A DNA stretch of 64,000 nt from Candidatus Omnitrophota bacterium (GTDB lineage: Bacteria; Omnitrophota; Gorgyraeia; Zapsychrales; Zapsychraceae). Where the stretch lies: contig DATDQB010000020.1 of assembly GCA_035292445.1 (NCBI GenBank), positions 27,484-91,483 on the forward strand, given 5' to 3'. A program made the translations under genes and the position numbers. Numbering within the stretch: position 1 is the first letter of the stretch; each line of letters begins with the position of its first letter. The notes beneath the pieces are model-generated. The model was not told where the DNA came from. It did no database searches and worked only from the letters and a program-made list of their open reading frames with translations. Positions 9,516-64,000 of this stretch are shown piece by piece.

Positions 9516-9520
9516 AGTTG

Positions 9521-21801: not shown

Positions 21802-21813
21802 CTTGTTCCTTGC

Positions 21814-22593: not shown

Positions 22594-22601
22594 CTTTAAC
22601 C

Positions 22602-23540: not shown

Positions 23541-23562
23541 CGCGTCCCCAATATTGATCAGA

Positions 23563-26588: not shown

Positions 26589-26727
26589 ACCAATCCTTCA
26601 ACACGGTCAAATTCTTGATCGTTTGCTGGACGCTGTACCTGGAATCAGGCCTTTGCCTGGCTGTCTCTTCCCACGTGCGTCCGTCTTTGCTTCCTTTGAT
26701 CTTGGTCATGCACAACCTCTTTCTTGC

Positions 26728-37997: not shown

Positions 37998-39743
37998 TTA
38001 TAAATCGGCTTTCGAGGCACCTCGAATGGTAGGTTTTTCGTCGTTTGTCATTGTCGCTAAGTCAACTCTTTTCGAGTGTCGTCCCGGATGTCGTTTCGTA
38101 TTCTGTCCTCCCAATTCATTGACAGCCCACCAGGATAAAGCAATGATCTCTTCATCAGGTAAGTCGCTAAAATTTGTCGACACCTGCTCACCCTGCTCGC
38201 CTAACTTAAGAAAATACTGCTCGATCATATCATCATCCGCCGGGCCTTTTTTGCCCGTAACAGCTTTGGCAATAAGCCCTTTTTCTAAAGCCAAGTCCCA
38301 GAATGACGTTGCCGGATAAGCGGTCGTAAAGAAGAATACTTCCGGCTTTAAACCGATCTCCCTGCATACATCAACGGTTTCCTGGACGGTTTCCTTTGTT
38401 TCGCCGGGAGAGCCGATCATAAAAGAACAATCGGCATACCCTAAAACACGCTGCGTTTCTCTGATGGCGATCTTGATCTTCTCCGGTGTTTGGCCGCTTT
38501 TATCAATACTTTTAAGTATGATGGGGCTGGCCGTCTCGACGCCATAGCCGGCCTGCCTCATACCGACCTCATACGCTAACTCCAAGATGTTCTTCCGTCC
38601 TTGCTTTTGGGCGCGGACAACATCATCGGCGATGATATTGGTCCGGCACGTTGCCCCCCACATGACCTCAAAACCGTCTTTTTTCTTGCGATCACGCAGT
38701 TCATCGCACAATTCCATGGCCCAACGGTAATCCGTCATCAGCAGATCATCAAGGAAATGGATGTAGCCCGCGTTATAGCGCGCGCTGACGTATTGCATCT
38801 CATCCACCACTTCTTTCGGGCTTCGCAGGCGATATGTCTTCCCCAAATAAGAAGCGTAACAATAATCGCAGGCCTTGGCGGCGTAAGGGCAGCCGCGGGA
38901 GGCGATCATCTCGACAGAATTTATTGATACGCTGGCGCTTCCGTCCGACCATTTATTTTTCCAGTTCAAGTGGCCCACAGGGTTCTTTTTGTATACTTCA
39001 TCAATAGGCCATCGGGACCTTAAAGGCCATGGCAATGAATCCAAACCGAGCTCACGGGACGGCACGGATGAGCGTGAGCCGTTATTGCGGGCCTCAAACC
39101 GGCCGTTGCCCAGATCATGCCGGTAAGCGATCCCTTCAAGCCCTTCAAAAGATAACCGCTTTTCGATGCGCTGAAGAATTTCCGAAAAAATAACCTCCCC
39201 CTCTTTGATAACGGCTACGTCGATAGGCAACCTTTGGACCATAAAATCCGGCAAGCATGAGGCAATGCCGCCACCGAGAATGATCGGAATATTTGGTGCG
39301 TATTTCTTACAAAGACGCGTGATCTGCCGGATCCGCCCATATTGAGTAATGATCCCGCCGATACCAATAACATCCGGCCGGGCCTTCGACAAACATGCGA
39401 CAATATGATTTTCCACCCAACGGTCGAACTCCGCGGGCGACATTTTAATAGGTTCTTTCCTCAACGCATTAAGGTCCAATGCCTCCACGCGGTGCCCATC
39501 CATCAGCGCTACCGAAGCGACATATCCCTGGCCTAAAGGCATGATGTTCGGGTATGACCATTCGCGGATGGGCGGATTGATCAAAAGAAGCTTTAACCCC
39601 CCTTCCCGCGGGGTAAACAATTTCTCGGATTCCTCCGTCGTGATGCGCGGCCAGTTAGAATACTCTATCTGGCTGGAAAGATTAAAACGCTCGAAAAATC
39701 TTTCCGGTGCCGCCGTTTGCTCTGTAATAATTGTATCGGGCAT
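37998..39743 (-). CDS. B12-binding domain / radical SAM protein, copy 2 (non-canonical cluster spacing)
   Basis: 581 aa. It has an N-terminal B12-domain-like LKLLLINPPIRE...PLGQGYVASVAL. The cysteine cluster is SRGCPYAAKACDYC (Cx6Cx2C). It aligns to the 53661-55253 paralog. Confidence 0.7.
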   Translation of the reverse strand: MPDTIITEQTAAPERFFERFNLSSQIEYSNWPRITTEESEKLFTPREGGLKLLLINPPIREWSYPNIMPLGQGYVASVALMDGHRVEALDLNALRKEPIKMSPAEFDRWVENHIVACLSKARPDVIGIGGIITQYGRIRQITRLCKKYAPNIPIILGGGIASCLPDFMVQRLPIDVAVIKEGEVIFSEILQRIEKRLSFEGLEGIAYRHDLGNGRFEARNNGSRSSVPSRELGLDSLPWPLRSRWPIDEVYKKNPVGHLNWKNKWSDGSASVSINSVEMIASRGCPYAAKACDYCYASYLGKTYRLRSPKEVVDEMQYVSARYNAGYIHFLDDLLMTDYRWAMELCDELRDRKKKDGFEVMWGATCRTNIIADDVVRAQKQGRKNILELAYEVGMRQAGYGVETASPIILKSIDKSGQTPEKIKIAIRETQRVLGYADCSFMIGSPGETKETVQETVDVCREIGLKPEVFFFTTAYPATSFWDLALEKGLIAKAVTGKKGPADDDMIEQYFLKLGEQGEQVSTNFSDLPDEEIIALSWWAVNELGGQNTKRHPGRHSKRVDLATMTNDEKPTIRGASKADL

Positions 39744-43539: not shown

Positions 43540-44781
43540 TTAGTTCTCCTTATCCCCATAGACCGTATGCCGCAATTTCCATTGCCCGCCCTCTTTGCGC
43601 CAAAGGTGAGGTGAGCGGAATTCATCACATAATTCATGAAACCGTGCTTGGTCCATGCCGATATGCCCCATAACCTCTTTAAAATATTTTTCCGGGAACT
43701 CCCCGTCAAAACGTTTGACGAGCGCGATCCCTTCTTCACGGGAAATATGCCTATTACGGATCTCTTGCGAAGCATCATATGTTGCACGCCCAATACCGAA
43801 CTTTATATACGTTGTGTAATAGTGAAACCCGTCAATTTTATCGTCCAAGCTGTTATATTTGCTGTATGTCCCTTCGGAACGGACAGGGTTTGCCTGAAAT
43901 CCCGCATTTTCAACCGAATAATAATACGCCTCTTGAGGCGTCCACTTCAAATAGTAGCCCAAGTAATGCACCTCTATTTTATGCTGTTCGATTTCTCTAT
44001 AATCCGCGGGCAAATATATTTTTATTTCGTGATCGCTTAGGCCATATTTTTCCTTTAATTCACGAACGGAAACCCCGCTGATAAATAGCTCTTCATAACG
44101 ATTGGCCGAATAATAGGATTTATCGCGCAACGATGTTTGGTTATCCGCGAAAGGATTCCCGTATTCCGACTCATTTTCCCCGTAAAATATAAGCGGGATA
44201 TTAAATTTTATAGCGATCTTGGGTGCTAAGTTCTTTTGGCCTAAAATGAACGGCTGAAAGGGATGCAGGAGGTTCTCGATCGCCAGGCGTGTTAATAACG
44301 TGTGCACGCTCCCATTATAATTAAAAGAAATATTATCGAATCCCCCCTTATCAATCCAGTTCCGGAAGTTCTTGTACCCGACATCTGTATAAAGGATCGG
44401 CGGCCACGTAACCGTTAAGGGATGCATGCCATATTTTGTTTTCAGGACATGGGACTGTAAGATACTGTCTTTCCCCCCGCTTCCTGGGACAATGCAGTCA
44501 TATTCTCCGTCATGGCGGCGGTACTTATCGCACAACGCCTGCAATTCCATCTCCCGCTGCTTCCAATCAATTGTTTCTTTTATATCCGCATAACGGCACG
44601 CATCACAGATGCCATCGTCACCGATCCTGATGGTTGAGTGGGCCTTATTGACGGCGTGTTTAAATTCGATCGAAGAAGACGGCCGCTGATTGGAGATGAC
44701 GCATCGCTTGCAGAACTTCACCTCTTTAGGCAACCCATATTTTACTTCCAACTCTTCTTTTATATTCTCTTGAACGCCCAT
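43540..44781 (-). CDS. N-acetyl sugar amidotransferase (PP-loop family), copy 2
   Basis: 413 aa. It has a zinc ribbon (CKRC...CDAC) and the PP-loop IVPGSGGKDS. It is a paralog of 35983-37179. Confidence 0.8.
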   Translation of the reverse strand: MGVQENIKEELEVKYGLPKEVKFCKRCVISNQRPSSSIEFKHAVNKAHSTIRIGDDGICDACRYADIKETIDWKQREMELQALCDKYRRHDGEYDCIVPGSGGKDSILQSHVLKTKYGMHPLTVTWPPILYTDVGYKNFRNWIDKGGFDNISFNYNGSVHTLLTRLAIENLLHPFQPFILGQKNLAPKIAIKFNIPLIFYGENESEYGNPFADNQTSLRDKSYYSANRYEELFISGVSVRELKEKYGLSDHEIKIYLPADYREIEQHKIEVHYLGYYLKWTPQEAYYYSVENAGFQANPVRSEGTYSKYNSLDDKIDGFHYYTTYIKFGIGRATYDASQEIRNRHISREEGIALVKRFDGEFPEKYFKEVMGHIGMDQARFHELCDEFRSPHLWRKEGGQWKLRHTVYGDKEN

Positions 44782-47057: not shown

Positions 47058-48136
47058 TTGATAACGGAGTCCTCCGGGATCCTTCTTTGTACTATTCTGC
47101 CGACGACACGATTGATATCCTTAGGAGCGATGCCTGTGCCCGGTCTTTTCACCACAATATCCCGGTCTGTGATCATCTGTCCTTTTTTCAGCCCATGTAC
47201 CGCGACCAGGCTTTTGCGGGCGATATTCCTATTCTTCATTTCACATGCTGCCGCAGATTTAATGCCGTTTCCCAAACTTAACGTCACATGGCGGATCATA
47301 CGAACCATTTTTTTGAATTCATCCGGCTCCATGGACGCCTTGTGATCTGGTCCCCTCATAACGCGGTCCAACGTGATATGTTTCTCGATGACGCGGGCAC
47401 CCAAAGCGACCGCGGCCACCGCCACTTCAACTCCCAGCGTATGGTCTGAGTATCCTACGGGCAGCTTAAATTGCTTTTCCAAGCTCAACATGGCTTTCAA
47501 GTTCACATCCTTGTACGGGGCCGGATATTCGCTGACACAATGCAGCAAAATGATCTTTGTATTTCCCGCTTTCCTGATGATCTGGACCGCTTCTTGTACT
47601 TCATCCATATTGGACATCCCCGTTGAGAGGATCATTTCCTTCTTTTTCTTGGCGATATATTCTAAGAGCAGTAAATGGGTCAGATCGCCCGAGGAGATCT
47701 TATAGACCTGCACTTTTAAACGCTCCAACAGATCAACGCTTTCAAAATCGAAAGGTGTCGACAAAAAAAGGATCTTCCTCTTTTTGCAATGGTCCTTTAA
47801 TTCTTTAAAACCCTCGAAAGGCAATTCCAATTTTCTAATCAGATCATACTGATCGCGGATATCCGCACCTACATTCCTTCTTTGATAATCCGCCAATTTT
47901 GTTCTTCTCGATAACAGATTCTGTGCCTTGAACGTTTGAAACTTTATACCGTCCGCCCCCGCATTTTTTGCAGCGTCAATAAGCTGTTTGGCAATCTTCA
48001 TATTTCCGTTATGATTGACGCCTGCTTCGGCAATAATAAAAACGTGATTACTGGATAATAGACGCGATGTCACTAACAGCTCCTTTTCGGCGGGCCGGTG
48101 TCCCCCAATATGTGCCCGCTTCTTTGCAATCATCAA
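47039..48136 (-). CDS. NeuB-family nonulosonic acid synthase, copy 2
   Basis: About 365 aa. VFIIAEAGVNHNGNMKIAKQLIDAAKNAGADGIKFQTF is present. The track start is a TTG codon, and the true start is probably further in, to limit overlap with the upstream acetyltransferase. Confidence 0.85.
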   Translation of the reverse strand: MMIAKKRAHIGGHRPAEKELLVTSRLLSSNHVFIIAEAGVNHNGNMKIAKQLIDAAKNAGADGIKFQTFKAQNLLSRRTKLADYQRRNVGADIRDQYDLIRKLELPFEGFKELKDHCKKRKILFLSTPFDFESVDLLERLKVQVYKISSGDLTHLLLLEYIAKKKKEMILSTGMSNMDEVQEAVQIIRKAGNTKIILLHCVSEYPAPYKDVNLKAMLSLEKQFKLPVGYSDHTLGVEVAVAAVALGARVIEKHITLDRVMRGPDHKASMEPDEFKKMVRMIRHVTLSLGNGIKSAAACEMKNRNIARKSLVAVHGLKKGQMITDRDIVVKRPGTGIAPKDINRVVGRIVQRRIPEDSVIKWEQLA

Positions 48137-48716
48137 CCACCGTAGCCCCCGCTCCTATAAGACATCCTGGCGCGATCCTTTTGCCGACGATGACCGTACT
48201 GCCGGGGCCTATCAGAGACCCTTGCCCTATAAATACCCCTCCGCATAACGTCACGCCGGGCGCAACATGAACATGGTCTTCGATAACGCAATCGTGATCG
48301 ACCGATGATGTTGTATTAATAATGGCATTGTTGCCTATGCGACTGCCCGGGCCTATGATAACGCCTGCCGCGATAAATACGCCGCGGCCTAACTGCGCAT
48401 TACCGGATACGACCGCGCTCGGATGGATCACGTTAGGAAAACCAAAACCGATTCGCTGCACATCCTGGAAAAGGCTTTGGCGCGTTTTGTTATCCACCAC
48501 AGACCCAACGCAAATAAAAGCGTACCGATAGCCTTGGTCGAATAATGCCTGTAAGTCCTCATCACGGCCTAGAACAGGGACCCCGTCAACTGACTCTCCT
48601 TTGGTGAATAAAGGATCGGTAATGCCTGCGATCTCATATTGCCCGCTACTTTTTATCGCGTCGATAACAACACGGCAATGACCTCCCCCTCCTATTAATA
48701 AGACTTTGTCTTTCAT
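48048..48716 (-). CDS. NeuD/PglD-family hexapeptide-repeat sugar N/O-acetyltransferase
   Basis: 222 aa. It has an N-terminal Rossmann-like KVLLIGGGGHCRVVIDAI and C-terminal left-handed beta-helix hexapeptide repeats (IGPGSRIGNNAIINTTS...). Confidence 0.8.
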   Translation of the reverse strand: MKDKVLLIGGGGHCRVVIDAIKSSGQYEIAGITDPLFTKGESVDGVPVLGRDEDLQALFDQGYRYAFICVGSVVDNKTRQSLFQDVQRIGFGFPNVIHPSAVVSGNAQLGRGVFIAAGVIIGPGSRIGNNAIINTTSSVDHDCVIEDHVHVAPGVTLCGGVFIGQGSLIGPGSTVIVGKRIAPGCLIGAGATVVDDCKEAGTYWGTPARRKGAVSDIASIIQ

Positions 48717-50909: not shown

Positions 50910-52766
50910 TTAAACTCCTATCAATTCGCCGCTTGCCGCATATAAATGCTGGTGCAGCCTCTGTTGCGCCTGGCCGTCGCAATAACGGTCGATATATTTT
51001 TTTACATACGCATCCTGGTATTCCTTGAATTCCTCTTCACTGCATTCATGAAGCCAATAGTGGGCGGCTTGCTTGAGCTGGTCATATCCTCTCACGCAAA
51101 ACTTTGGCATCTTGAATACGTCGAACACGGCCTGGTCAAACCTGTCTGATGTGACCTGACAGACCGCTCTTACGCCGCCAACGAGCGCTTCCTGGGTGGC
51201 GCTCGAATTAAAACCGCCGATCACCAGATCAAATATTCCCATAAAATCAAAACTCGCATAATGGGGCGCTTTTTCATTCGCAAAAATGACCCGCTCATGG
51301 CTGATGAGCTTCTTGAATTCAGCGTTCAACTCCTTGCTCTGCTCTATCGCATCCTGGCTTCTTGTCTTGAATATGAAAAAATACTGTTCGTGCTCTTGGA
51401 TGAAACGGTATGCATCGCGATAGCTCGCAATACCTTCCTCCAAATTAAAAAACCCGGCCCTTCCTATCGCCGTATCAAAAAACCCTATCAATTTTCTATC
51501 GAGCGGGACGCCGAATTCCCTTTTCAGCCGATCCTTACGTGCAGGATCATGCTTAGTCTCATAAATGATATCGGAGGGGTACGTGCCTGTATCAACATAA
51601 TTCTCGATGCAGTTCCTTGATCTTGAAAAATTATTGAGCGAAATAAAGTTTGAAAAGATGGTGCCGTAGACCGTATAACTGTAATACAAGTCAATGGGCA
51701 AACTCATATCTTCCCTGTAAACATAATCAAAACTCGCCGATTTGTAGACAAACACGGTTTGAGAACCATGCCTTTCCTGTATCAAGGTGCGCGAGACGCT
51801 CCCCGGGTCCTGAACAGCGATGAATTTCTCAACCCTGTACTTCTCGAAAAACATTCCCCATTCGATGAAATCCTTGATGGTCTTCAGATAAACCCTTAAC
51901 ACACCGAGCTTAGGCTTTTGAACCGACCGGAAAAGTGTTTGTAGGTGCTTGATCCCGGGAAGTATATTCTTTCGATAGACTTCCTGACTGAAATTTCTCG
52001 TCATTTCCTTGAAATAACATTGGTCGAACCCGTTCCCCGAAAGCCTCTCCAGAACCGGCGCCGACATCTTTCTGTCCATGACATAAAGCGTGTCCTTTTG
52101 ATCAACGCCCGTTTCAGGATGGATAAACTCAAGCTTGTTGATGTTCTTTTTCAGATCGATCCCGCTATCGAACATGAGTGCTGCATTCTTGTATTCTTTT
52201 ACTGCATATTTGGTTTCTTTGCCCTTCATGGTAAATTGCAAAATGGTTGGATAGAATTTTATCCCCATTCGGTAAACGAAGCTGGTTTTCAGTTCCTGCT
52301 GATACATCGCGTTAAGGTACCATGCGGGTATCGTAAAGCAATCCGGCAAGAAGCCTTTCTTTTCGGCCAAGATCTTGTAGATCGAATAATAAAATGGCTT
52401 CGGTATGAAATGTATCTTCTCTTTAATGTTGTGTTTCTTGACAAATTCGACGGCGAACGCAAAAGAGATCATAAGATCGGCCAACTGGGCAACGATCTCC
52501 TTTTGCATAAAGTTCTTCGCCCGAGGATCGGCAAAGGCGCGTATCAGGGCTTCTTCCTGTTCTTGCGTCACATAGTCCCGGTAAAACCAATCCATGGCTT
52601 TGGCCGCTTGAGAGCGCACAACATAGCGCTGGGTCAGATCAAATAGATCGCATTCAAGCAAGGTCGCATTGCGGCAATCCCCCTCTGCAACATAAAGGGA
52701 ACTATAGCCCTTGCATCTTGAAGGCTTATATTGAGCCGCGTGTTCTAATAAACAGACTTTTGACAT
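50910..52766 (-). CDS. Large hypothetical protein with a GT-B-like C-terminal region; paralog of 23563-25530 (candidate nonulosonate or other group transferase)
   Basis: 618 aa. The C-terminal LVIGGFNSSATQEALVGGV pattern and the N-terminal KEKIHFIPKPFYYS block are shared with the 655-aa ORF. Confidence 0.4.
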   Translation of the reverse strand: MSKVCLLEHAAQYKPSRCKGYSSLYVAEGDCRNATLLECDLFDLTQRYVVRSQAAKAMDWFYRDYVTQEQEEALIRAFADPRAKNFMQKEIVAQLADLMISFAFAVEFVKKHNIKEKIHFIPKPFYYSIYKILAEKKGFLPDCFTIPAWYLNAMYQQELKTSFVYRMGIKFYPTILQFTMKGKETKYAVKEYKNAALMFDSGIDLKKNINKLEFIHPETGVDQKDTLYVMDRKMSAPVLERLSGNGFDQCYFKEMTRNFSQEVYRKNILPGIKHLQTLFRSVQKPKLGVLRVYLKTIKDFIEWGMFFEKYRVEKFIAVQDPGSVSRTLIQERHGSQTVFVYKSASFDYVYREDMSLPIDLYYSYTVYGTIFSNFISLNNFSRSRNCIENYVDTGTYPSDIIYETKHDPARKDRLKREFGVPLDRKLIGFFDTAIGRAGFFNLEEGIASYRDAYRFIQEHEQYFFIFKTRSQDAIEQSKELNAEFKKLISHERVIFANEKAPHYASFDFMGIFDLVIGGFNSSATQEALVGGVRAVCQVTSDRFDQAVFDVFKMPKFCVRGYDQLKQAAHYWLHECSEEEFKEYQDAYVKKYIDRYCDGQAQQRLHQHLYAASGELIGV

Positions 52767-53660: not shown

Positions 53661-55253
53661 TTATAATGGTTTCGCTTCTTTTTCTATAGGGGCATTGACC
53701 TTTTTATTGACCATATTGAAAGATGGCCCTGAAACGGCCAACGGCCTTGTCAACGCGTCCGCATCACCCCAATGTTTGCGGGTCTGCTCCAATAACCGCA
53801 GGTCCCTTTGCATGACAATTTGCTGTAAACCCAACAATTGCGCCGGTGAAAATTTATGGGAGATCGTTGCGGTGATCCGGGACGCATCCCCCAGGTCTTT
53901 GACAAAGGCCTCGAGATCGCCGGCATATTGCTGAAGGATCGAATCCTTATACGCGTAGTACCATTCCGATCCCGGATAAGGTGTTGCAAAGTGCGGCTTG
54001 GTATGGATGCCCAGTTTGATCAGGCATTCAATGGTCGTTTTCACACTTTCAAACGATTCCTGGGGAAAACCGATAATGATATTAGGGATGGGGATGATAC
54101 CCGATTCCATGCATATCTTCGGCGCCTCAAGATTGTTCTGTTGATTAACGCCCTTGCCTAAATTCTTAAGAATAAAGGGATCAAAGGACTCGATCCCGTA
54201 AACAAGGTGAGAGCAACCCGACTTATACATAAGGTCCAATAACTCTTTATTCGCCAAACTCGCGTGGCTTGTTCCCGACCAAAATACACCGCCTTTGTTC
54301 TCCTCATCGGGCGTCCCGTCCCGCCGGGAACTCGGTTGAAGCCCCTCTTTGATCCATAGATCACAAAGTTCCTGCAACCAGGATCTTTGTCCGGTGCGGC
54401 GGCTCGTCACATCCATCGTCATAAGGTTCTCATCGATAAAATTGATAAAATCGATCTGATATTTTTTCACTAACGTTTTGACCATATCCACGATATAGCG
54501 CGGGCTGTGGTAGCGGATATTGCGCCCGTACGTAAAACGCACGTCATTCTCGCCATGCTCGTTCTTTTCGATCACCATGTCGCCGGTCGTCCCCAAATGC
54601 CAGCAGAATTTGCAGACCAAACCGCATCCTAAACTGCCCATAATATCTATCCGCCTTTTTGAGCAGAAAGCGGCCTCGCTAAAGAGCAGCTGTGAATTCT
54701 TGAAATAGATCTCCAGAGGAAGCAGGTCCCAGGCCGGATAAGGCAACACATCCATGTCCTTGATATTTGGCCGGACCGGCGTTAGAACGCCCTTTTTATT
54801 CTTGTCCCGGTAACAGATGCCCAACGTATTTGTAAAATCATGGTCGTTCTTACCGATCTTATCGAGGATCTCGGGCCATGTAACGAACGATTCCCCCATA
54901 AGGCCCAGATCGATCTCGGGCAGCCATTCCATCATCTCTTTGGGCATACTGGTAAAGAACCCGCCGCCGGCAACAATAAATGACTTGGGGGAAATTTGCT
55001 TGCAGATCTTAAGCGTTCTCTTGATCGAGCCATACGTCGTTGTCAATCCGCCGATCGCGATGACATCCCAATCATCCGCGGCGCAGACCTTTTTCATCAT
55101 TTCCGGCCCCTTGCGCCAGGCGTTCTCGTCATAGATCTGGACTTGATGCCCCTTTTCGACCGCAATGCTGGCCAACAAACTTATCCCATAAGGGATGTGT
55201 TTTGGGTCATCTTCCTCCCTCACAATAGGATTGATCATCAATACTTTGGCCAT
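53661..55253 (-). CDS. B12-binding domain / radical SAM protein, copy 3
   Basis: 530 aa. It has an N-terminal B12-domain-like AKVLMINPIVRE...PYGISLLASIAV and a canonical cluster SLGCGLVCKFC (Cx3Cx2C). Confidence 0.8.
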   Translation of the reverse strand: MAKVLMINPIVREEDDPKHIPYGISLLASIAVEKGHQVQIYDENAWRKGPEMMKKVCAADDWDVIAIGGLTTTYGSIKRTLKICKQISPKSFIVAGGGFFTSMPKEMMEWLPEIDLGLMGESFVTWPEILDKIGKNDHDFTNTLGICYRDKNKKGVLTPVRPNIKDMDVLPYPAWDLLPLEIYFKNSQLLFSEAAFCSKRRIDIMGSLGCGLVCKFCWHLGTTGDMVIEKNEHGENDVRFTYGRNIRYHSPRYIVDMVKTLVKKYQIDFINFIDENLMTMDVTSRRTGQRSWLQELCDLWIKEGLQPSSRRDGTPDEENKGGVFWSGTSHASLANKELLDLMYKSGCSHLVYGIESFDPFILKNLGKGVNQQNNLEAPKICMESGIIPIPNIIIGFPQESFESVKTTIECLIKLGIHTKPHFATPYPGSEWYYAYKDSILQQYAGDLEAFVKDLGDASRITATISHKFSPAQLLGLQQIVMQRDLRLLEQTRKHWGDADALTRPLAVSGPSFNMVNKKVNAPIEKEAKPL

Positions 55254-56551: not shown

Positions 56552-58330
56552 TTATTTGGTCAGCAGTTCCAACTCCTGCAGTTTGACCATTGTTTGGAAC
56601 GCCCCCCGCTCAATACGGCTCAATTCCTGGTAATTGCCGGACTCAATAACTTCGCCCCTTTCAAAAACATATATGCAATCTGCTTTCTTAATGGTTGAAA
56701 GGCGGTGCGCTATAACAACAATTGTCGTTTCATGAGAAATATTTTCGATGGCTTTTTGTATATACAATTCCGATTGAGTATCGAGCGCGCTTGTCGCCTC
56801 ATCCAGGATCAACAATGTCGGGTTTCTCAATAATGCCCGAGCCAGGGCCAGTCGCTGTTTCTGGCCTCCGGATAAACGGACGCCACGATCTCCAACGATC
56901 GTGTCATAGCCGTCCTTAAATTGCTTTACAAACTCATCCACATAGGCTTTGCGGCAGGCCTCTTCGATATCCGCCTTAGTTGCCTTATCATTTGCCCACA
57001 GGAGATTATCACGGATGGTCATATTAAAGAGTATGCTCTCTTGAGGAACATAGCCGACCTTCTGGCGATAAGAATTAAGGTTAAACTCCATCAGGGGAAC
57101 ACCGTCAAAGCAAATCGTTCCTTCTTTGGGCTCATAAAGCCCTAATATAAGATCAACCAGCGTTGATTTCCCTGCTCCCGATTTTCCAACAAGAGCGACC
57201 ATATTTCCCTTCGGGATATCCAAATTCACATTTTTAAGGACCGGATGGTCCGGCGTATAAGCAAAAGATACTTGCCTTATGGTGATCTTGTCTTCAAATC
57301 CCTCAAACTTTCTTGTGCCGCCTCTTTCCCGAAGATCAAAAGCCATCTGCCTGAAGCGCTTGAGCTGTTCATAGCTTGGAGCAAAACCTTTCAATGTTAA
57401 CCGGTCCGAGATCAAGTTCCCGACGTTCATCGCACCCTTTAACAACGCCAACATTAAGACCGTAAGCGCCGATAAAGGCACGTCAAAATACTTGGACAGG
57501 ACCAGGGCCGTCACGATGATGGCTATGACCAAAGGTCGATACATTAAAGGGACGAATATCCCAAGGATCTGCGATTTGATGGTCACCGCCGTATGGGCAT
57601 CATAGGCCTTTTCCAGTTCTTTAATTCCCTTCTCTTGATTCCCGAATCCCAGGACAATTTTGGCCAAAGTTAAGTTCTCCTGAATGACAACATAGATTTC
57701 ATTGGCCGTTGATGTATTAAGCACCCCTAATCGGTAGCTTAATTTGCCGAACAACAAAAATGGCAATGCGATCAAGATAGTGGCCGCTCCGGTGATCATC
57801 GTCAACTGCCAAGAAATATAGAAAGGCACTATCAGATACGCGGCTGTTTGCACCAGCCGGGAGAAAAAATACGCCAAATTGGTGAACGTATCGACCACGA
57901 CCGACATCTCCCGACTAAAAGTATTGATCAATTCCCCTTGCCGCACTTTACTAAAAAACTCCCATCTGGCCTGAAAAAAATCTCGATAAGTCCCCATCAT
58001 CATTTCACGCAAAAATATGTACTTCGCCCGTAAAATGGAGCGTTTTGCCAGAATTTCAAAAACGCTCGTCAAAATAATAAAGACCAAGAATACCAGCGTC
58101 CAACTTATAAGACTTACGGGTAAATGAAGCCATTGGAGCATTTCAATGGCCTTTTGTGTCATCGGGCTCACATTCTCAAGTTCCGGATTCGTGACAAATT
58201 CAACTAACGGCCCAATGGTAAAGATCGTGGAAACATTGACAATGCTTAAAGCGATGGTCAACAATATCGTCCTAATCAATTGCGGCGAAAACTTCCCAAA
58301 TAATTCTTTTATAAAATCATTTAATTTCAT
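56552..58330 (-). CDS. ABC transporter, fused permease/ATPase (MsbA/PglK-type exporter)
   Basis: 592 aa. Six N-terminal TM helices are followed by Walker A GKSGAGKST, the ABC signature LSGGQKQRLALARALL and Walker B ILDEATSALD. Confidence 0.9.
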   Translation of the reverse strand: MKLNDFIKELFGKFSPQLIRTILLTIALSIVNVSTIFTIGPLVEFVTNPELENVSPMTQKAIEMLQWLHLPVSLISWTLVFLVFIILTSVFEILAKRSILRAKYIFLREMMMGTYRDFFQARWEFFSKVRQGELINTFSREMSVVVDTFTNLAYFFSRLVQTAAYLIVPFYISWQLTMITGAATILIALPFLLFGKLSYRLGVLNTSTANEIYVVIQENLTLAKIVLGFGNQEKGIKELEKAYDAHTAVTIKSQILGIFVPLMYRPLVIAIIVTALVLSKYFDVPLSALTVLMLALLKGAMNVGNLISDRLTLKGFAPSYEQLKRFRQMAFDLRERGGTRKFEGFEDKITIRQVSFAYTPDHPVLKNVNLDIPKGNMVALVGKSGAGKSTLVDLILGLYEPKEGTICFDGVPLMEFNLNSYRQKVGYVPQESILFNMTIRDNLLWANDKATKADIEEACRKAYVDEFVKQFKDGYDTIVGDRGVRLSGGQKQRLALARALLRNPTLLILDEATSALDTQSELYIQKAIENISHETTIVVIAHRLSTIKKADCIYVFERGEVIESGNYQELSRIERGAFQTMVKLQELELLTK

Positions 58331-59552
58331 GATTTACTAAAACCTCCGCGGGATTTTCCTCCAAAAGATACCGATTATTTCTTAGAAAATTTGTGCCAAT
58401 TCTTGATAGATGTCCATAAGCATAATGATCAGGTGGATAAAGACTTCTGTATTTCTTCTGAAGTATGTCTTCATCATCCTTCTTTACCCATATCCCCTCA
58501 AGACGCTCATGCATCTCTTTGACTAGATCCAAGATCTCATCAGGAGTGTTTTCGACCACCTCTAAATCGGCATTTCTATAAAGCTTAGTATCCCACCATT
58601 TATCAGCACCATAAGCAAGAATCTCCCGGTAGCTTAAATACCGTTGCCTTTTGATATCCCAAAGCTTTTTGCTTATATAAACATCCCCTTTCCGCCAAGC
58701 AACGGAATAGAGTATATAAGGGGTATTGGTGTAGGCGACAGGTACATTAAAAAGCCATGGTACCGTAATTAATCCGCCATCTGTGCCGATAAAGAATTTA
58801 CATTTAGCGCTTAAATAAATATCCCCAAAATCTGAATGATATTGACGGGCATAATCAATCACCTTAGGGTGATGGACTGGGATTTCGTCTTTAACAACTT
58901 TGCCCATGCGTAACACATAAAATCCCTTCGAAATAAGATAATTAATGACCAAAGCGTAATTTTTGATATGGCAATCGCGAAAATCATGGGCGGAGGAATC
59001 TTTACCCGGCAGATGCTGTTCTAGATACGCCGAATCCCTGACATGCAAACAAACAAAAGGTTCCCCCTGCTTTATTCCCATTTTCGACAATAACGCTTGG
59101 CCCTGCTTTTCCTCTTCATCGGTAAAACTTAATTGCGGTGGCGTATAAGTAAAATCTTCGAAAGGATCCTTCCATTCCTGTAAAGTAAACCATAAAGGAG
59201 ATTTGCTTGTTAACTGCCGGACCTTCCAATACATATGCAACAAAATCTTGTTTTCAATAATGCACATGACCCTTTTTTGCATTTTTAATAACTGCTCATT
59301 GGCCGGCCTCCCACTGAAGAATATATGCCATTCTTTCTTTGCCGATGGTTGGGTTTTTCGCCTGCGCAAATAAAGCTCTGTATTGGTGGCCAATTCGCCT
59401 AAGCGCGAATAAATAAGGTGCCCGAACCGCCAATTAAAAACAGGTTGTAATAATCTCAATACGGCAAAAACAGGCAAGCCGACAAAGAGCAAAAGCAACC
59501 TTATGGGCGGTTTAATGATTTTCTGGTTAATTAATGCAAGATTAATTGTCAT
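58317..59552 (-). CDS. Hypothetical protein with N-terminal TM helix
   Basis: About 411 aa from the internal Met (MTINLALINQ) at 59552, which abuts the upstream radical SAM stop. No recognisable catalytic motif is visible. Confidence 0.35.
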   Translation of the reverse strand: MTINLALINQKIIKPPIRLLLLFVGLPVFAVLRLLQPVFNWRFGHLIYSRLGELATNTELYLRRRKTQPSAKKEWHIFFSGRPANEQLLKMQKRVMCIIENKILLHMYWKVRQLTSKSPLWFTLQEWKDPFEDFTYTPPQLSFTDEEEKQGQALLSKMGIKQGEPFVCLHVRDSAYLEQHLPGKDSSAHDFRDCHIKNYALVINYLISKGFYVLRMGKVVKDEIPVHHPKVIDYARQYHSDFGDIYLSAKCKFFIGTDGGLITVPWLFNVPVAYTNTPYILYSVAWRKGDVYISKKLWDIKRQRYLSYREILAYGADKWWDTKLYRNADLEVVENTPDEILDLVKEMHERLEGIWVKKDDEDILQKKYRSLYPPDHYAYGHLSRIGTNFLRNNRYLLEENPAEVLVNHEIK

Positions 59553-60657
59553 TATTCGACATTTCCTTGGCTTGAATCGTTGCTCCGCCCTGCCGATCAT
59601 GCAAATTTTTATTCCAGTTTTCCATTTTATCGAGCACATTATAAAACGTTGTATAAGGCGACGGATTGCGGATGAGAAATCCGTCCCTAACCTCTTCTTT
59701 CATTTCAAATGTTTCAACCCAATAATCACATGGTTTACAAAAAGACAATTCATCCCATCGTCCGCTATTGTGTAACTCCCTTAATTCATTCATTCGCTTA
59801 TTATTCCATACGGCCCGTACGCCACCCTCCTTAAAAACATTCCCTACGACAATATCGGGTTGTTCGGCCGTAATGACACAAGGAGACACGTCCCCATTGG
59901 CCCGAATAACGATGTCCCGAAATAATTGTTTACAGGGGACGCGAGGAGGAAGATCGGCGCGCGTAAAGCCGGGTATTTCGGAAATATCCGGCGTCAGGTC
60001 TTTGATATAACCGGTAATGCGAATAACATCTATTTTTTTCTTCCAAAAATCAAGAAAGCTGGGAATCTCATGATAATTGTAGTCCGTTTCGACAAACGTA
60101 ACGCCGATGCGGGGAAGTTTTTTATCCCCTCTGATCCTGATCAATAATTCAACGTTTTCAATCAACTTATCGAGACGGGTAATACCTCGCGCCTTTTTTA
60201 AGGTCTCCGGCGTCATGGCATCGATGCTTACGTTAATGGAGTCATACTGGACATCAACAAGAAGTTGACAAAGCTCCTCATTAAGCGTGAGACCGTTCGT
60301 ATTAAATGTTCCCACTAAACCGCATTCTTTAACTTTCCGAACGGCAAAGGGAAATGTTTTGGCAATCAAAGGCTCGTTGGCCACATTTAACGTAACCGAG
60401 GGCTTATAGGGGGCGACTTCTTCAAAAATGGAGGTGATTTGGATAGCCGACATATGAATGGGCGTCTTATAATAAGGAGAATAGTTTTCCGGTTTCCTTT
60501 TTTCAACACTGTGGTGACGGCAATGGGGACAAGCCAAATTACACGTATTGGTCAACTCCAACCGCACAATATCCGGCATGAGATTATGACTCAATACAAC
60601 TTCTTTCCTTTCACTCTGATTGATAACCATTTGCTTCGACTTGGCATGTACTGTCAT
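59542..60657 (-). CDS. Radical SAM domain protein with Cys-rich C-terminal (SPASM/twitch-like) region
   Basis: 371 aa. The N-terminal cluster is LTNTCNLACPHC (Cx3Cx2C), and C-terminal cysteines are present (SPCVITAEQ...SFCKPCDYW). Confidence 0.75.
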   Translation of the reverse strand: MTVHAKSKQMVINQSERKEVVLSHNLMPDIVRLELTNTCNLACPHCRHHSVEKRKPENYSPYYKTPIHMSAIQITSIFEEVAPYKPSVTLNVANEPLIAKTFPFAVRKVKECGLVGTFNTNGLTLNEELCQLLVDVQYDSINVSIDAMTPETLKKARGITRLDKLIENVELLIRIRGDKKLPRIGVTFVETDYNYHEIPSFLDFWKKKIDVIRITGYIKDLTPDISEIPGFTRADLPPRVPCKQLFRDIVIRANGDVSPCVITAEQPDIVVGNVFKEGGVRAVWNNKRMNELRELHNSGRWDELSFCKPCDYWVETFEMKEEVRDGFLIRNPSPYTTFYNVLDKMENWNKNLHDRQGGATIQAKEMSNNDN

Positions 60658-60667
60658 AAAATCCTCC

Positions 60668-61780
60668 TTAACAACGTGATATTGATGCGGTTGTTGGGTT
60701 TAAACTTGCCGGATTGTCACCATCCACATCCGATTTAGAAATATATAAATTTTCCAGAATAGGGGCACAATGCTCCCCCACTAAGAAAGAAAAACTTTGC
60801 TCTTTCTTTATCTGTTGAATAGGCGATAATCGCATCGGAAGGATCAAGCGGTCAAAGGGTTCTTCCTCTGCCCCCAACTCCCTCCATGTCTGTCCGAAAG
60901 TTTTATTCGAACAAATAAAATCAGCATAAGCGCAGCCGGTATTTTTTAATTGGAATAAAACTTGTTGCAGCAAAGAAATTCCGTCCCTATGCCCCTCTTC
61001 ATCAGCGGGATAGAAGAAATCCACGATTCGCCCAACCAATGCCTCAAAACTACCGAATGCTTGCTCTATTCGGTAAACGCATACGGCCGGGCGGTGCTGT
61101 TTTCCCGCTAAGATAATACGGTACTTAAAGAACGGATGCTCCGTGTATCTGTGGGTCAAATAGTCTAACGATCGAATGACAGAAAAATTCAACTGAGGAT
61201 ATAATTCCCAACGGGGATTATAATTTTCTTGCTTCGAAATTAAATCTCTCGTCACGGCTGAAGGAAAATCTTTGGGTTTAAAAATAAACTTTTCTAACTC
61301 CCCCTCCAAAGCCTTTGGAGGTAACATCGGGATGCTTTGATCCTTATCCAACACGCAAAGATATCGCGGGATGTGGTGCACGCATGACCAACCCAAACTC
61401 ATCAAAAGAGGCAGGCCCTGCTCACTCGCGTTGAGCGTAAGCACCAAAGGAAACATCTCCTGTGCTTTCTTTATTAATAATACCCCCACTCCTCGAGGAG
61501 CATCCTTTCTGACCATCCAATGAGTAAACCATGCCGACTGGACCTCTTGACCGGGTGTTCCCCAGTGGGCAGCCAATGGAACGTACCCCATAATGCCAAC
61601 CAAGCGGTCATTGTCCCAAGCGCAAATAACTGTCGCCTTAGCGTCATTTTCCTTGAGTTTAACCTGCCACTCAAAAAACTCCCTGGAGCAAAGGGGATGA
61701 TCCGGCCTATACGTCTCACGCACAAATTCAAGAAAATCTTCCCAGTCTGACATTTGCAAGAACTCTTCAACCCTGATCAT
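60668..61780 (-). CDS. Hypothetical protein, possible acyl-CoA/ACP N-acyltransferase-fold enzyme
   Basis: 370 aa and soluble. The assignment rests on size and on the ACP/FkbH genes immediately upstream. No sharp motif is visible. Confidence 0.25.
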   Translation of the reverse strand: MIRVEEFLQMSDWEDFLEFVRETYRPDHPLCSREFFEWQVKLKENDAKATVICAWDNDRLVGIMGYVPLAAHWGTPGQEVQSAWFTHWMVRKDAPRGVGVLLIKKAQEMFPLVLTLNASEQGLPLLMSLGWSCVHHIPRYLCVLDKDQSIPMLPPKALEGELEKFIFKPKDFPSAVTRDLISKQENYNPRWELYPQLNFSVIRSLDYLTHRYTEHPFFKYRIILAGKQHRPAVCVYRIEQAFGSFEALVGRIVDFFYPADEEGHRDGISLLQQVLFQLKNTGCAYADFICSNKTFGQTWRELGAEEEPFDRLILPMRLSPIQQIKKEQSFSFLVGEHCAPILENLYISKSDVDGDNPASLNPTTASISRC

Positions 61781-62007
61781 CTAACATCCTTGTTTGACAA
61801 AATCGATTTAATTAACTTAAAGCTCTGCATTTCTAATACATCCTGGTCGGTCAACTTGACCCCGAATTCTTCCTCAATGGCCGTAATAAGCTTCAAATGG
61901 TTCAATGAATCCCAATTCTCGACCGTATAGGGAGTCGCGCCCTCATTAATCTCATCTTCCGGGACCTCAAGCACTATAGATAAAATTTTCCTGATCTTTT
62001 CTTCCAT
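61777..62007 (-). CDS. Acyl carrier protein
   Basis: 76 aa. The phosphopantetheine-attachment DSL motif sits in ENWDSLNHLKLITAIEEEFG and the protein is acidic. Confidence 0.7.
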   Translation of the reverse strand: MEEKIRKILSIVLEVPEDEINEGATPYTVENWDSLNHLKLITAIEEEFGVKLTDQDVLEMQSFKLIKSILSNKDVR

Positions 62008-63736
62008 TTCTTACCTCAATATAATTAATGTTCTTGGAACGGTATCGGCTGATATCCAAAACATACTTGCTGGAATTTTTGTCTGCGACATCTAATATGA
62101 AGGAACATTCATCATAGAAATTCTTGGCCACACCATTTTTCGCCGTTTGAATATAGTTTGCTTTAACTGTTTTTATACGGCTCTGTTTTAAGGCTTCGAC
62201 CAGCTGATCCATAAAGGCGTATTCCAGATTTCTTCCGATAACCCGACAACTCATCAGGAACGTGTCTATTTCTGCCACAGAAGATTTTGCATCAAGCATC
62301 GCAATGGAAACGCCTGTCACGCCGCTATCACCAAACTTATCCGATACGGAAAACGCATAAACTCTTGCCCCCTCATGGCAAATAAAATTCTTAATCTCAT
62401 TTTCCGTGTAACGCTTAGTCGTCAAATTAAATTGATTTGTCTTTTGGCACATTTGTGAAATGCGCGGGATAAGGCTTTCGTCATTTTCAAAAATGGTCAT
62501 TTTAAGCTTGAGAGAAGCAAAATATTCTTCCATATTAACGAATTCCTTTTTTGCTTCCTCTCTTTCTAACTGTCTTTTATACATCTTTATTTTGCTGATA
62601 TCTTCTTCAGTCGATGATCCCTTATAAAACAAATTCATATGTTCCCTCATGAGCCTTGGATAATCATATAATTTATCAGGCACCTGGAATGTCTTGACTT
62701 CGGGAATCTCTCTTCTGATGAAATCGATTTCAAAAGGGGAATCGTCCACATAAACAATACTGTCCAAGCCGATGTTCAACTCTTGGACTATCGCTCTGAG
62801 ATTAACGGCCTTATCGGACCAATTGATCTTCTTAATAGCAATATGCTCATCCCTTAACTGCATATCAGGATGCCTCGCGATCAGCTCTTCCACTTCTTGA
62901 TAATTATTCTTGGAACATAATCCGATAATGACGCCCTGCTTGGCCAGAGCAAGCGCCAAGGCTTGAATTTCAGCGAAAATCGCGCCATCTTTTGTAGTGG
63001 GGGACATCTCGATCCTTTCCATACCATCTTCTCCTAAAATCCCCTTCCATAACGTGTTATCGCAATCAAAAATGATAGCCTTTTTTGATTTCCCATTGAC
63101 TGAACAAAAAAACGGCATAATATGCTGCGCATAGGCTCGATAAAAATTGACCGTATACAATGCTTTCGAAGAATAATAATGTCTTAAATCAACGCTTTCC
63201 CTAAGCCCGAGGCCCGCTATGACCTTATCAAGATCGATTAAATGAACATTGCGACCAACATGATCTTCCAAATACCGGTTCAATTGCCGGGCGAGTTGCT
63301 CGAAGCGGTTTGTTTCAAGGCTCACCGCATTAAAAGGAAGTGCAGAGAATTTGTTCAGGATGACAAAAGGGGTTTTTTGCAAATTCTTTAATGTAAAATC
63401 GATCTCTCCTTTTACCTTTTCCAATAGCTCATTTAACTGCTTTTCATCCCATGTTTCGGCCTTATATGGTAATCCTTCAAGCACGTTCCAAAGTTCCCAA
63501 AAAATAATAACCCCGTTTGATTCGCAATATTTCCGTGCATCCTGAACAATATTATCGTAATCACCGATGTGGACCTTGGCAGGAATTCCTTCCGCTCGTA
63601 ATGAATATTCCAGAATCTCTTTCAAAAGATTGATGGTAGAATTGGAAAATGCCGCGATATTATAAGTTTCAGCAGTAAGGCTGCGGCCCAATTCTTGATT
63701 CGCTTTTAAAATCTCTGTGTAAGATAGATCTTTCAT
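61967..63736 (-). CDS. FkbH-like HAD-superfamily (subfamily IIIC) phosphatase / acyl-ACP loader
   Basis: 589 aa. The HAD motif I in the IIIC signature context is AIIFDCDNTLWKG, and it is preceded by a long FkbH-type N-terminal domain. Confidence 0.65.
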   Translation of the reverse strand: MKDLSYTEILKANQELGRSLTAETYNIAAFSNSTINLLKEILEYSLRAEGIPAKVHIGDYDNIVQDARKYCESNGVIIFWELWNVLEGLPYKAETWDEKQLNELLEKVKGEIDFTLKNLQKTPFVILNKFSALPFNAVSLETNRFEQLARQLNRYLEDHVGRNVHLIDLDKVIAGLGLRESVDLRHYYSSKALYTVNFYRAYAQHIMPFFCSVNGKSKKAIIFDCDNTLWKGILGEDGMERIEMSPTTKDGAIFAEIQALALALAKQGVIIGLCSKNNYQEVEELIARHPDMQLRDEHIAIKKINWSDKAVNLRAIVQELNIGLDSIVYVDDSPFEIDFIRREIPEVKTFQVPDKLYDYPRLMREHMNLFYKGSSTEEDISKIKMYKRQLEREEAKKEFVNMEEYFASLKLKMTIFENDESLIPRISQMCQKTNQFNLTTKRYTENEIKNFICHEGARVYAFSVSDKFGDSGVTGVSIAMLDAKSSVAEIDTFLMSCRVIGRNLEYAFMDQLVEALKQSRIKTVKANYIQTAKNGVAKNFYDECSFILDVADKNSSKYVLDISRYRSKNINYIEVRNGRKDQENFIYSA

Positions 63737-64000
63737 AACATAACTTGTCCACCATTGACTCTGATGGTCTCTCCTGTTAAAAAATCCGATTTCTCTGAGG
63801 CCAGAAAACTGATAGTCCCGGCAATGTCCTGCGCCGTTGCGATCCTCCCCAGGGGAGTTTGCGCCTCGGTCAACAATCGAACCCTCTCGGGTATATTGGC
63901 AATCAACTCCGTATCTGTCATTCCGGGGGACACCAAGTTTACCCGGATCCCCTTTGGCGCCAATTCAAGAGCCAAAGCCTTGGTGAATCCGTGCAAGCCT
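63733..64000 (-). CDS. Short-chain dehydrogenase/reductase (FabG-like 3-oxoacyl-ACP reductase), C-terminal fragment; gene continues past window end
   Basis: The SDR C-terminus is ALELAPKGIRVNLVSPGMTDTEL...GETIRVNGG. The ORF is open to the window edge. Confidence 0.7.
   Translation of the reverse strand, partial: GLHGFTKALALELAPKGIRVNLVSPGMTDTELIANIPERVRLLTEAQTPLGRIATAQDIAGTISFLASEKSDFLTGETIRVNGGQVML

Follow-up and report, generated by a model that had tools for sequence, protein, structure and literature searches.

The FkbH enzymes characterised so far load a glyceryl unit from 1,3-bisphosphoglycerate, and in the loading modules for FR901464 and bryostatin a dehydratase/ketoreductase (DH/KR) route leads from the glyceryl thioester of an acyl carrier protein (glyceryl-ACP) to lactyl-ACP. 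In the butirosin system (BtrI, the ACP, and BtrH), a dedicated ACP serves to assemble a hydroxyacyl side chain, which is then moved to the amine of an amino sugar. On the surface sugars of bacteria, non-acetyl N-acyl groups, among them glyceroyl, di-O-methylglyceroyl, lactyl-type and hydroxybutanoyl, are immunodominant. N-glyceroyl and 2,3-di-O-methylglyceroyl amides of pseudaminic acid (Pse) are known from Tannerella forsythia, Vibrio vulnificus and Campylobacter jejuni (PMC5378307, PMC3068675, bioRxiv 10.64898/2026.04.20.719630), but the genes that install such C3 hydroxyacyl groups had still not been identified in 2017 for Pse5Am7Gra of T. forsythia or for V. vulnificus (PMC5378307). A 64,000-nucleotide stretch of a Candidatus Omnitrophota genome (assembly GCA_035292445.1, contig DATDQB010000020.1, positions 27,484 to 91,483 of the forward strand; hereafter the window) ends in four overlapping minus-strand genes that probably constitute a carrier-protein-dependent module for the N-acylation of a sugar. 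This reading rests entirely on sequence, structure prediction, gene fusions and synteny. From the window edge inward, the four genes are:

63733-64000, minus strand: C-terminal 88 codons of a FabG-like short-chain dehydrogenase/reductase (SDR), the gene running past the window edge (adh_short_C2, 4e-25)
61967-63736, minus strand: FkbH-domain HAD-IIIC protein, 589 aa (TIGR01686, TIGR01681)
61777-62007, minus strand: ACP, 76 aa (Pfam PP-binding)
60668-61780, minus strand: protein with tandem GCN5-related N-acetyltransferase (GNAT) folds, 370 aa, of an unnamed family (AlphaFold2 model and Foldseek)

All four open reading frames (ORFs) lie where the initial annotation of this DNA had placed them on the minus strand, and its gene order, an FkbH-like gene followed by a 76-aa ACP and directly by a 370-aa protein, is borne out by ORF coordinates and domain matches. 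The SDR and FkbH genes overlap by 4 nt, the FkbH and ACP genes by 41 nt, and the ACP and 370-aa genes by 4 nt, which suggests a single unit of transcription and translation; the next gene follows after a gap of 10 nt, and every gene in the window's 3' part is on the minus strand. The island in which the module sits measures at least 75 kb, counting the 64-kb window and about 10 kb past its edge, and also makes nonulosonic acids (NulOs) of the legionaminic acid (Leg) and Pse types.

At least eight bacterial phyla have this module. Scanning, with one genome taken for each species and alignment A1 as the query (the 48-sequence alignment A2 being too diverse), yielded 11 loci from Omnitrophota, Bacteroidota, Elusimicrobia, Cyanobacteria, Nitrospirae, Myxococcota, Acidobacteria and Alphaproteobacteria, the last represented by the cultured Desertibaculum subflavum. 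Neighbours, counted by phmmer mapping with the window proteins and by Pfam matches of unassigned ORFs, were distributed as follows:

FkbH and ACP adjacent to the tandem GNAT: 11 of 11 genome loci
MaoC and SDR, fused or split: 8 of 11 genome loci
DegT within 10 kb: 9 of 11 genome loci
WbuC cupin: 7 of 11 genome loci
C-methyltransferases: 5 of 11 genome loci
TIGR04372 glycosyltransferase: 7 of 11 genome loci
SPASM radical-SAM (S-adenosylmethionine) enzyme: 8 of 11 genome loci (5 strong and 3 weak matches)
NeuB within 10 kb: 2 of 11 genome loci

Thirteen metagenome loci follow the same pattern, several of them with GNAT, DegT and WbuC genes in direct succession. Because the FkbH, ACP and GNAT genes adjoin one another in every genome locus and are also fused in single polypeptides, the arrangement is far more than chance. 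The fusions are of two kinds: P0156 (1,068 aa) joins FkbH, ACP and the domain of the 370-aa family, an architecture shared by the truncated P0071, while P0097 and P0161 consist of ACP and the family domain. Such proteins are strong evidence that FkbH, ACP and GNAT act together and that the acyl donor would be an acyl-ACP. The core proposal of the initial annotation, an FkbH/ACP-based acyl-decoration module for an amino sugar, is thus supported by both synteny and fusions.

Among known tandem-GNAT acyltransferases, the best structural matches of the 370-aa protein are protein N-myristoyltransferases (NMTs) and the Eis-like protein 2hv2. No Pfam or NCBIfam model covers its family, and neither NCBIfam nor a direct sequence search of PDB returned anything significant for the protein. 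A Candidatus Omnitrophota metagenome-assembled genome contains the exact sequence, labelled there as a hypothetical protein. Word-indexed searching found 13 homologues, or 14 proteins when alignment A2 was used, the sole label among these being the 'hypothetical protein' of the identical Omnitrophota sequence. An exhaustive profile search of 1.84 billion representatives recovered 1,994 family members at E<=1e-3, 127 of them at E<=1e-30. A tblastn search of plasmids gave only an orphan 'GNAT family N-acetyltransferase' (about 20% identity) on Escherichia albertii plasmids, an uninformative match with no glycan context.

The AlphaFold2 model of the protein (pLDDT 87.2, pTM 0.87, from a 12-sequence alignment) confidently predicts two GNAT folds in one chain. 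In a Foldseek comparison with PDB, the best matches were NMTs over the full length (probability 1.0, E 2.7e-12, TMq 0.47-0.53), and 2hv2 (TMq 0.55) and VipF were also matched with probability 1.0; the matches listed were all tandem-GNAT acyltransferases. The profile of 48 family members matched aminoglycoside 2'-N-acetyltransferases, AAC(2'), at 1.3e-6 and NMTs at 2e-3, both through the N-terminal domain, and 15 of the 48 members matched Pfam Acetyltransf_1 at E<=1e-3. GNATs bind the phosphate of pantetheine at the junction of beta4 and alpha3. At this junction, between the strand at residues 79-90 and the helix at 98-109 of the model, the family has an invariant G97-x-G99, a feature shared with the known enzymes; the C-terminal domain lacks the G-x-G motif and instead has a family-specific S-D-x-D-G-D-x-P. 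Besides this motif, the family differs from NMTs, 2hv2 and AAC(2') in that identity is only 10-14% and in that the donor implied by the fusions is acyl-ACP rather than acyl-CoA.

The candidacy of the 370-aa protein as the acyltransferase, proposed in the initial annotation, is strengthened by these results: instead of the non-acyltransferase fold that was named there as evidence to the contrary, the model shows a tandem-GNAT acyltransferase fold, the ACP and FkbH-ACP fusions occur elsewhere, and the profile search recommended there leads to AAC(2'), NMTs and, among family members, GNAT models of Pfam. Whereas the fold can be read from the model and the fusions from the sequences, activity and acceptor are predictions: the tandem GNAT would take the acyl group over from the ACP and attach it to the amine of an amino sugar in nucleotide-activated form. 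A locus from a soil metagenome (L027:146-3879) has a LuxC-like acyl reductase and a methyltransferase preceding the tandem-GNAT gene, and the 2.5 kb upstream contain no FkbH gene; other acyl-loading systems may thus also supply the family.

The best structural matches being protein N-myristoyltransferases, and GNATs being chemically versatile, the enzyme could instead acylate something other than a sugar amine, such as the N-terminus or a lysine of a protein, the amine of a lipid or an amino acid, or, by O-acylation, a hydroxyl of a sugar. This is improbable, however, in view of the consistent location of the family inside sugar-nucleotide gene sets, where it directly adjoins sugar aminotransferases, and of the best sequence match of the family profile, which is an N-acetyltransferase of aminoglycosides, that is, of amino sugars; nor is there a conserved candidate gene for a protein or lipid substrate nearby. 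That FkbH-derived units can also feed O-acylation is indicated by Sinorhizobium meliloti, in which an FkbH-ACP pair is accompanied by a membrane-bound O-acyltransferase (MBOAT). There, on pSymB (L033:8636-13671), a block comprising the MBOAT gene, a 'TonB-dependent receptor' gene, an ACP gene and a gene for an FkbH-like HAD protein lies about 4 kb from the rkp capsule-export genes. As in the Omnitrophota module, an FkbH homologue (31% identity over 93% of the protein) and a dedicated ACP occur in a polysaccharide context, but the transferase of S. meliloti is a membrane MBOAT, which fits the O-acylation logic of Dlt and AlgI, whereas here it is a cytoplasmic tandem GNAT. By that analogy the S. 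meliloti block may be a glyceryl O-acylation system. Its FkbH homologue is unannotated in many RefSeq records, and the searches made turned up no function for the MBOAT-ACP-FkbH set. FkbH-derived units may, as this combination suggests, serve more generally to decorate polysaccharides.

With the FkbH/OzmB-type glyceryl-ACP synthases of the methoxymalonyl-ACP, tetronate and oxazolomycin pathways, the 589-aa protein shares the FkbH domain, the HAD motifs, the C-terminal cysteine and the neighbouring dedicated ACP. It scores 274.4 bits against TIGR01686 (NCBIfam, residues 218-546, cutoff 146.65) and 63.7 bits against the HAD-IIIC model TIGR01681 (cutoff 35.75), and matches PDB entry 3slr (BF1531) at 4.5e-36. 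The motifs D224-C-D226-N-T (the DxDxT nucleophile), S275-K276, D331-D332 and S-C497-R are kept in 16 of 16 orthologues; Cys497 is the conserved C-terminal cysteine, which in OzmB carries the glyceryl thioester. At the level of sequence, then, every feature of FkbH-family membership that could be checked is present, and the protein is proposed to be a glyceryl-ACP synthase/phosphatase that uses 1,3-bisphosphoglycerate. The ACP matches Pfam PP-binding at 29.6 bits (cutoff 20.8, E 8.5e-7), and the serine of its WDS motif, the phosphopantetheine site, is likewise kept in 16 of 16 orthologues. Since it scores below all the AcpP equivalog cutoffs of NCBIfam, it is a dedicated carrier rather than the housekeeping AcpP. 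Given the family membership and intact catalytic motifs of the FkbH enzyme, the first step of the pathway would be dephosphorylation of glycolytic 1,3-bisphosphoglycerate and loading of the glyceryl thioester onto the 76-aa ACP.

In contrast to the FkbH/OzmB-type pathways, there is no PKS (polyketide synthase), FkbI, FkbK or ketosynthase here, and the ACP-bound product is presumed to be destined for a GNAT-type transferase in a glycan locus. All FkbH enzymes that have been characterised biochemically serve polyketide or tetronate pathways (PMC3679948, PMC7489565, PMC4552970), and the module might on that ground belong to a polyketide, tetronate, methoxymalonyl or lipid pathway, with the sugar genes incidental. 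The surroundings make this highly improbable and the polyketide or lipid version is largely refuted: no ketosynthase (KS), acyltransferase (AT), FkbI-type acyl-CoA dehydrogenase or FkbK-type 3-hydroxyacyl-CoA dehydrogenase occurs within 10 kb on either side, and the same neighbourhood of sugar genes is found in eight phyla. The initial annotation had allowed for a neighbouring lipid or polyketide locus beyond the window; the 10 kb past the edge hold sugar genes, and no KS, AT, other PKS or lipid genes. Two specific candidates are also rejected, the methoxymalonyl-ACP pathway by the lack of 3HCDH (FkbK) and Acyl-CoA_dh (FkbI) domains within 10 kb on either side, and a lactyl or glyceryl loading module of a PKS by the lack of KS, AT and PKS domains in the scanned window ORFs and in the 10 kb past the edge.

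The genes past the window edge were viewed on metagenome contigs that encode an identical FkbH protein, one of which is 208 kb long. On contig L001 (8817-10004), the full-length SDR gene encodes 395 aa with MaoC_dehydratas and SDR domains; the end of its translation is identical to the fragment in the window, and it has the motifs GDDNKIH (hydratase), TGGIG and YxxxK (SDR), which are kept in 7-8 of 8 orthologues. The initial annotation was therefore right that a FabG-like SDR is cut by the window edge, with the correction that it is the C-terminal half of a MaoC-dehydratase/SDR fusion.

As a 3-hydroxyacyl thioester, glyceryl-ACP belongs to the compounds on which MaoC dehydratases normally act. 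The closest precedents for such a pair of activities on this substrate are the lactyl starters of trans-AT PKSs (the GAT-ACP-DH-KR set of FR901464/spliceostatin and the loading module of BryA in bryostatin synthesis), where the same four activities, FkbH loader, ACP, dehydratase and ketoreductase, stand together. By analogy with these starter modules, the fusion is proposed to act as dehydratase and ketoreductase on glyceryl-ACP: it would dehydrate glyceryl-ACP to enol-pyruvoyl/pyruvoyl-ACP and then reduce the 2-keto group to give lactyl-ACP, and a neighbouring methyltransferase may O-methylate the ACP-bound product. FkbH loading has been listed elsewhere as giving D-lactate-ACP (PMC7901079). 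The present system differs from the PKS starters in that a MaoC hot-dog domain is fused to a FabG-like SDR and in that, in place of KS extension, the acyl group is presumably transferred to an amine; with no downstream ketosynthase or PKS module, the PKS loading module is a functional analogy only. On balance, the analogy slightly favours a lactyl group in this locus, perhaps O-methylated, with glyceroyl as the second candidate. The glyceroyl or O-methyl-glyceroyl substituent expected in the initial annotation is disfavoured, as a dehydratase-reductase pair acting on glyceryl-ACP would give lactyl-ACP via pyruvoyl-ACP; its other suggestion, a 3-hydroxyacyl substituent, is unlikely given that the locus lacks both a ketosynthase and an acyl-ACP ligase. 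In particular, a 3-hydroxybutanoyl donor was rejected, there being no KS or ligase to build the C4 unit.

The tailoring genes differ from lineage to lineage. In cyanobacterial loci (L011:6963-11835 and L010, from Oscillatoriales/Microcoleus), MaoC-SDR is absent and two SAM-dependent methyltransferase genes flank the ACP and GNAT genes; this version of the module would fit a (di-)O-methylglyceroyl product like that on Pse of C. jejuni. In acidobacterial loci, a homologue of the 220-aa methyltransferase that is encoded farther out in the Omnitrophota cassette is located directly upstream of SDR-MaoC-FkbH, a position that hints at an O-methylated product.

Several observations weigh against the sugar N-acylation module as proposed, or against parts of it. 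The sole Pfam match of the 370-aa protein, Acetyltransf_9, reaches 22.6 bits and is under the cutoff of 25, and the Foldseek TM-scores of the model are only about 0.5. Neither the dehydratase, a single MaoC hot-dog, nor the FabG-like reductase is homologous to the DH and KR domains of PKSs, for which the route from glyceryl to lactyl is known, so that the lactyl product is proposed by analogy only. MaoC-SDR is missing from 3 of the 11 related loci, so that the acyl group would vary between lineages. The adjacent DegT is about as similar to PseC as to LegC, perosamine synthase and QdtB, which leaves the regiochemistry of the amine ambiguous. Finally, NulO pathways lie 5-30 kb away in the same window, and relatives of the 370-aa family are found beside NeuB and NeuC in two loci, L017 (which also has FkbH and ACP) and L031.

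These last two points bear on a different reading, in which glyceroyl- or O-methyl-glyceroyl-ACP is the product of the module and serves the 370-aa enzyme to acylate N5 or N7 of the Pse or Leg made in the window, as in Pse5Am7Gra and 2,3-di-O-methylglyceroyl-Pse. The setting claimed in the initial annotation, a nonulosonic-acid locus with a TylF-type methyltransferase, is present, with two NeuB genes, sets of both the Leg and the Pse type, and two CMP-sugar synthetase genes. The Leg-type set comprises a PtmE-like nucleotidyltransferase, a DegT, a PglD-like acetyltransferase, NeuB, a hydrolysing 2-epimerase and a CMP-synthetase, and the Pse-type set a dehydratase, a DegT, a PseG/GNAT fusion, NeuB, a HisH/HisF-like pair and the second CMP-synthetase; the TylF methyltransferase and a Maf/MptE-like protein are also encoded in the window. 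Both sets look complete, and together with the two synthetases, the Maf-like transferase and the TylF methyltransferase they speak for this reading. N-glyceroyl and di-O-methylglyceroyl NulOs are chemically known, as the initial annotation held for Pse/Leg derivatives (PMC5378307, PMC3068675), an FkbH-domain gene (cj1302) is found in the flagellin glycosylation locus of C. jejuni (PMC7099621), and the replacement of MaoC-SDR by two methyltransferases in the cyanobacterial loci fits an O-methylglyceroyl product. Against this reading, each NulO pathway in the window is already provided with its own N-acetyltransferase:

48048-48716: PglD-like N-acetyltransferase of a NulO pathway
33151-34611: PseG/GNAT fusion of a NulO pathway

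A NulO acceptor is further disfavoured in this locus by the gene content of the close relatives of the module, which carry their own DegT, WbuC, C-methyltransferase and glycosyltransferase and have NeuB nearby in only 2 of 11 loci. Across the 11 loci, the module was not regularly linked to genes for NulO synthase, CMP-synthetase and deacetylase. The NulO-linked relatives L017 and L031 carry a polysaccharide deacetylase, which would free the amine, whereas no deacetylase was detected among the window ORFs scanned, which cover the window incompletely. If glyceroyl were the final group, the fused dehydratase-reductase pair would moreover have no role. Acylation of the Pse or Leg of this window with a glyceroyl-type group is accordingly rated unlikely, though somewhat less so than a non-sugar-amine target, and the expectation of Pse or Leg as the acceptor in the initial annotation is not upheld. 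For the family as a whole a NulO acceptor is possible. In L017:3900-13200 (D. subflavum), the module is found beside NeuB, NeuC and the deacetylase, and in L031:7735-12851, a family member of 23% identity (P0112) is encoded between NeuB/NeuC and the deacetylase and CMP-synthetase, with no FkbH or ACP. The order common to the two loci is NeuB, NeuC, deacetylase, GNAT, with or without FkbH/ACP/MaoC-SDR, and then CMP-synthetase. To judge from these loci, a NulO that has been de-N-acetylated, a sialic-acid-like sugar, may be re-acylated by the family in some lineages.

In the flagellin-glycan locus of C. jejuni NCTC 11168, the likeness to the present module consists in the FkbH-domain gene cj1302 within a NulO/glycan locus; PMC7099621 assigns no function to this gene, and the literature consulted does not connect it with the acyl group. 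The acceptor in C. jejuni is Pse, on which the 2,3-di-O-methylglyceroyl amide, a C3 hydroxyacyl amide, is chemically proven (PMC3068675), whereas synteny in the Omnitrophota locus points to a hexose-derived amino sugar. The butirosin system of BtrI and BtrH offers the same proposed logic of an ACP-built hydroxyacyl group transferred to an amino-sugar amine, but differs in its glutamate-derived 4-amino-2-hydroxybutyrate (AHBA), in its loader, in BtrH not being a GNAT, and in its product, an aminoglycoside secondary metabolite rather than a surface glycan. A possible further comparison is with N-acyl-kansosamine, a 3-C-methyl 4-amino sugar bearing a 2-methoxypropanoyl amide, of which the existence of the sugar alone is confirmed by PMC4403928.

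For the sugar N-acylation module, then, the acceptor would most likely be the product of a conserved cassette of about 12 genes that continues just past the window edge. The extension recommended in the initial annotation revealed the MaoC-SDR fusion and the rest of this cassette: outward from the FkbH gene (L001:1-8786), the fusion is followed by genes for a DegT, two Methyltransf_13/14 proteins, a DUF6016 protein, an SDR epimerase/dehydratase, a zinc-dependent alcohol dehydrogenase (Zn-ADH) and the 220-aa methyltransferase, and farther out by a 23S-rRNA-IVP gene and a split transketolase. One of the Methyltransf_13/14 proteins (CMT2) matches D-mycarose 3-C-methyltransferase at 9e-81, and the DUF6016 protein is a WbuC-family cupin (NCBIfam). 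The two C-methyltransferases and the transketolase suggest an unusual branched-chain sugar. Three further genes of the minus strand follow the 370-aa gene in the window:

59542-60657, minus strand: radical SAM/SPASM enzyme (Radical_SAM and SPASM domains), a conserved neighbour of the module
58317-59552, minus strand: TIGR04372 glycosyltransferase (226 bits, cutoff 45), its start ambiguous (longest ORF to 59639)
56552-58330, minus strand: half-size ABC exporter, HepA/MsbA/PglK-like (ABC_membrane and ABC_tran)

Strong orthologues of the SPASM enzyme adjoin the module in nine loci (L008, L009, L012, L013, L015, L020, L021, L022 and L029). The glycosyltransferase, called as 411-427 aa on contigs L001 and L002, is probably the transferase for the modified sugar. 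The best NCBIfam match of the exporter is HepA_fam_ABC (1.8e-116, under its cutoff); its orthologues follow the cassette in L007, L015 and L018, and it probably exports a glycan or lipid-linked glycan. In the pathway proposed, the SDR epimerase/dehydratase, the two homologues of NDP-hexose 3-C-methyltransferase, WbuC and DegT would make a C-methyl-branched amino-deoxyhexose, the TIGR04372 glycosyltransferase would install the acylated sugar, and the ABC transporter would export the glycan. Because the module is accompanied by its own aminotransferase, cupin, 3-C-methyltransferase and glycosyltransferase, this C-methylated amino-deoxyhexose is predicted by synteny to be a more likely acceptor than Pse or Leg. 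The related modules, with DegT, WbuC, 3-C-methyltransferases and glycosyltransferase of their own and NeuB within 10 kb in only two of eleven cases, are consistent with this choice.

Other parts of the island also concern glycans. The far end of the window encodes Wzy_C proteins, an initiating phosphoglycosyltransferase, glycosyltransferases, sulfotransferases and an adenosine-5'-phosphosulfate (APS) kinase. The genes at 138-1412, 8019-9632 and 1419-2846 encode two Wzy_C-domain proteins, each a polymerase, a ligase or an O-oligosaccharyltransferase, and an initiating transferase of the Bac_transf type; because of their presence the island would assemble its glycan on a lipid carrier, with a polysaccharide or a protein as the possible target. 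The region 21271-27723 groups an APS kinase gene with those for a 259-aa nucleotidyltransferase, a methyltransferase, two sulfotransferase-like proteins and a protein of 655 aa that has no Pfam match; a sulfated glycan is probably among the products of the island. Directly downstream of the second NeuB gene (32066-33154), the region 28412-32069 encodes an 806-aa PPDK_N/PEP-utilizer, a Peptidase_C26/GATase and a 415-aa protein of no family, an unusual set of partners for a NulO pathway. Two B12-binding radical-SAM enzymes and a 650-aa radical-SAM protein (53661-55253, 37998-39743 and 19191-21143) are scattered among the sugar genes, C-methylation or other radical chemistry on sugars being possibilities for them. 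ORFs of 618, 413 and 398 aa in the NulO part (50910-52766, 43540-44781 and 35983-37179) have no Pfam match at the thresholds used.

It is conceivable, with the balance slightly on the other side, that FkbH, ACP and tandem GNAT represent a widespread, unrecognised three-component system that puts glycolytic C3 units, tailored on the ACP, as amides on amino sugars. In the literature searched, publications that mention FkbH together with polysaccharide assign no function to FkbH. If the proposal is correct, a dehydratase/reductase would direct the system to lactyl and methyltransferases to O-methyl-glyceroyl, the missing genetic basis of N-glyceroyl, N-lactyl and N-methoxypropanoyl groups in surface glycans would be at hand, and sugar N-acyltransferases that are ACP-dependent and have the tandem-GNAT fold would have their first example in the 370-aa family. 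Glycan biosynthesis would become a new field for FkbH chemistry, of which the known cases all lie in polyketide and tetronate pathways. The module offers a concrete gene set, in which a loader and a carrier are joined by optional tailoring enzymes and by an acyltransferase of a new family with about 2,000 sequence clusters; organisms that have it include the cultured D. subflavum and Microcoleus. Although the enzyme chemistry itself is familiar, the origin of C3 hydroxyacyl amides on bacterial sugars thereby becomes testable.

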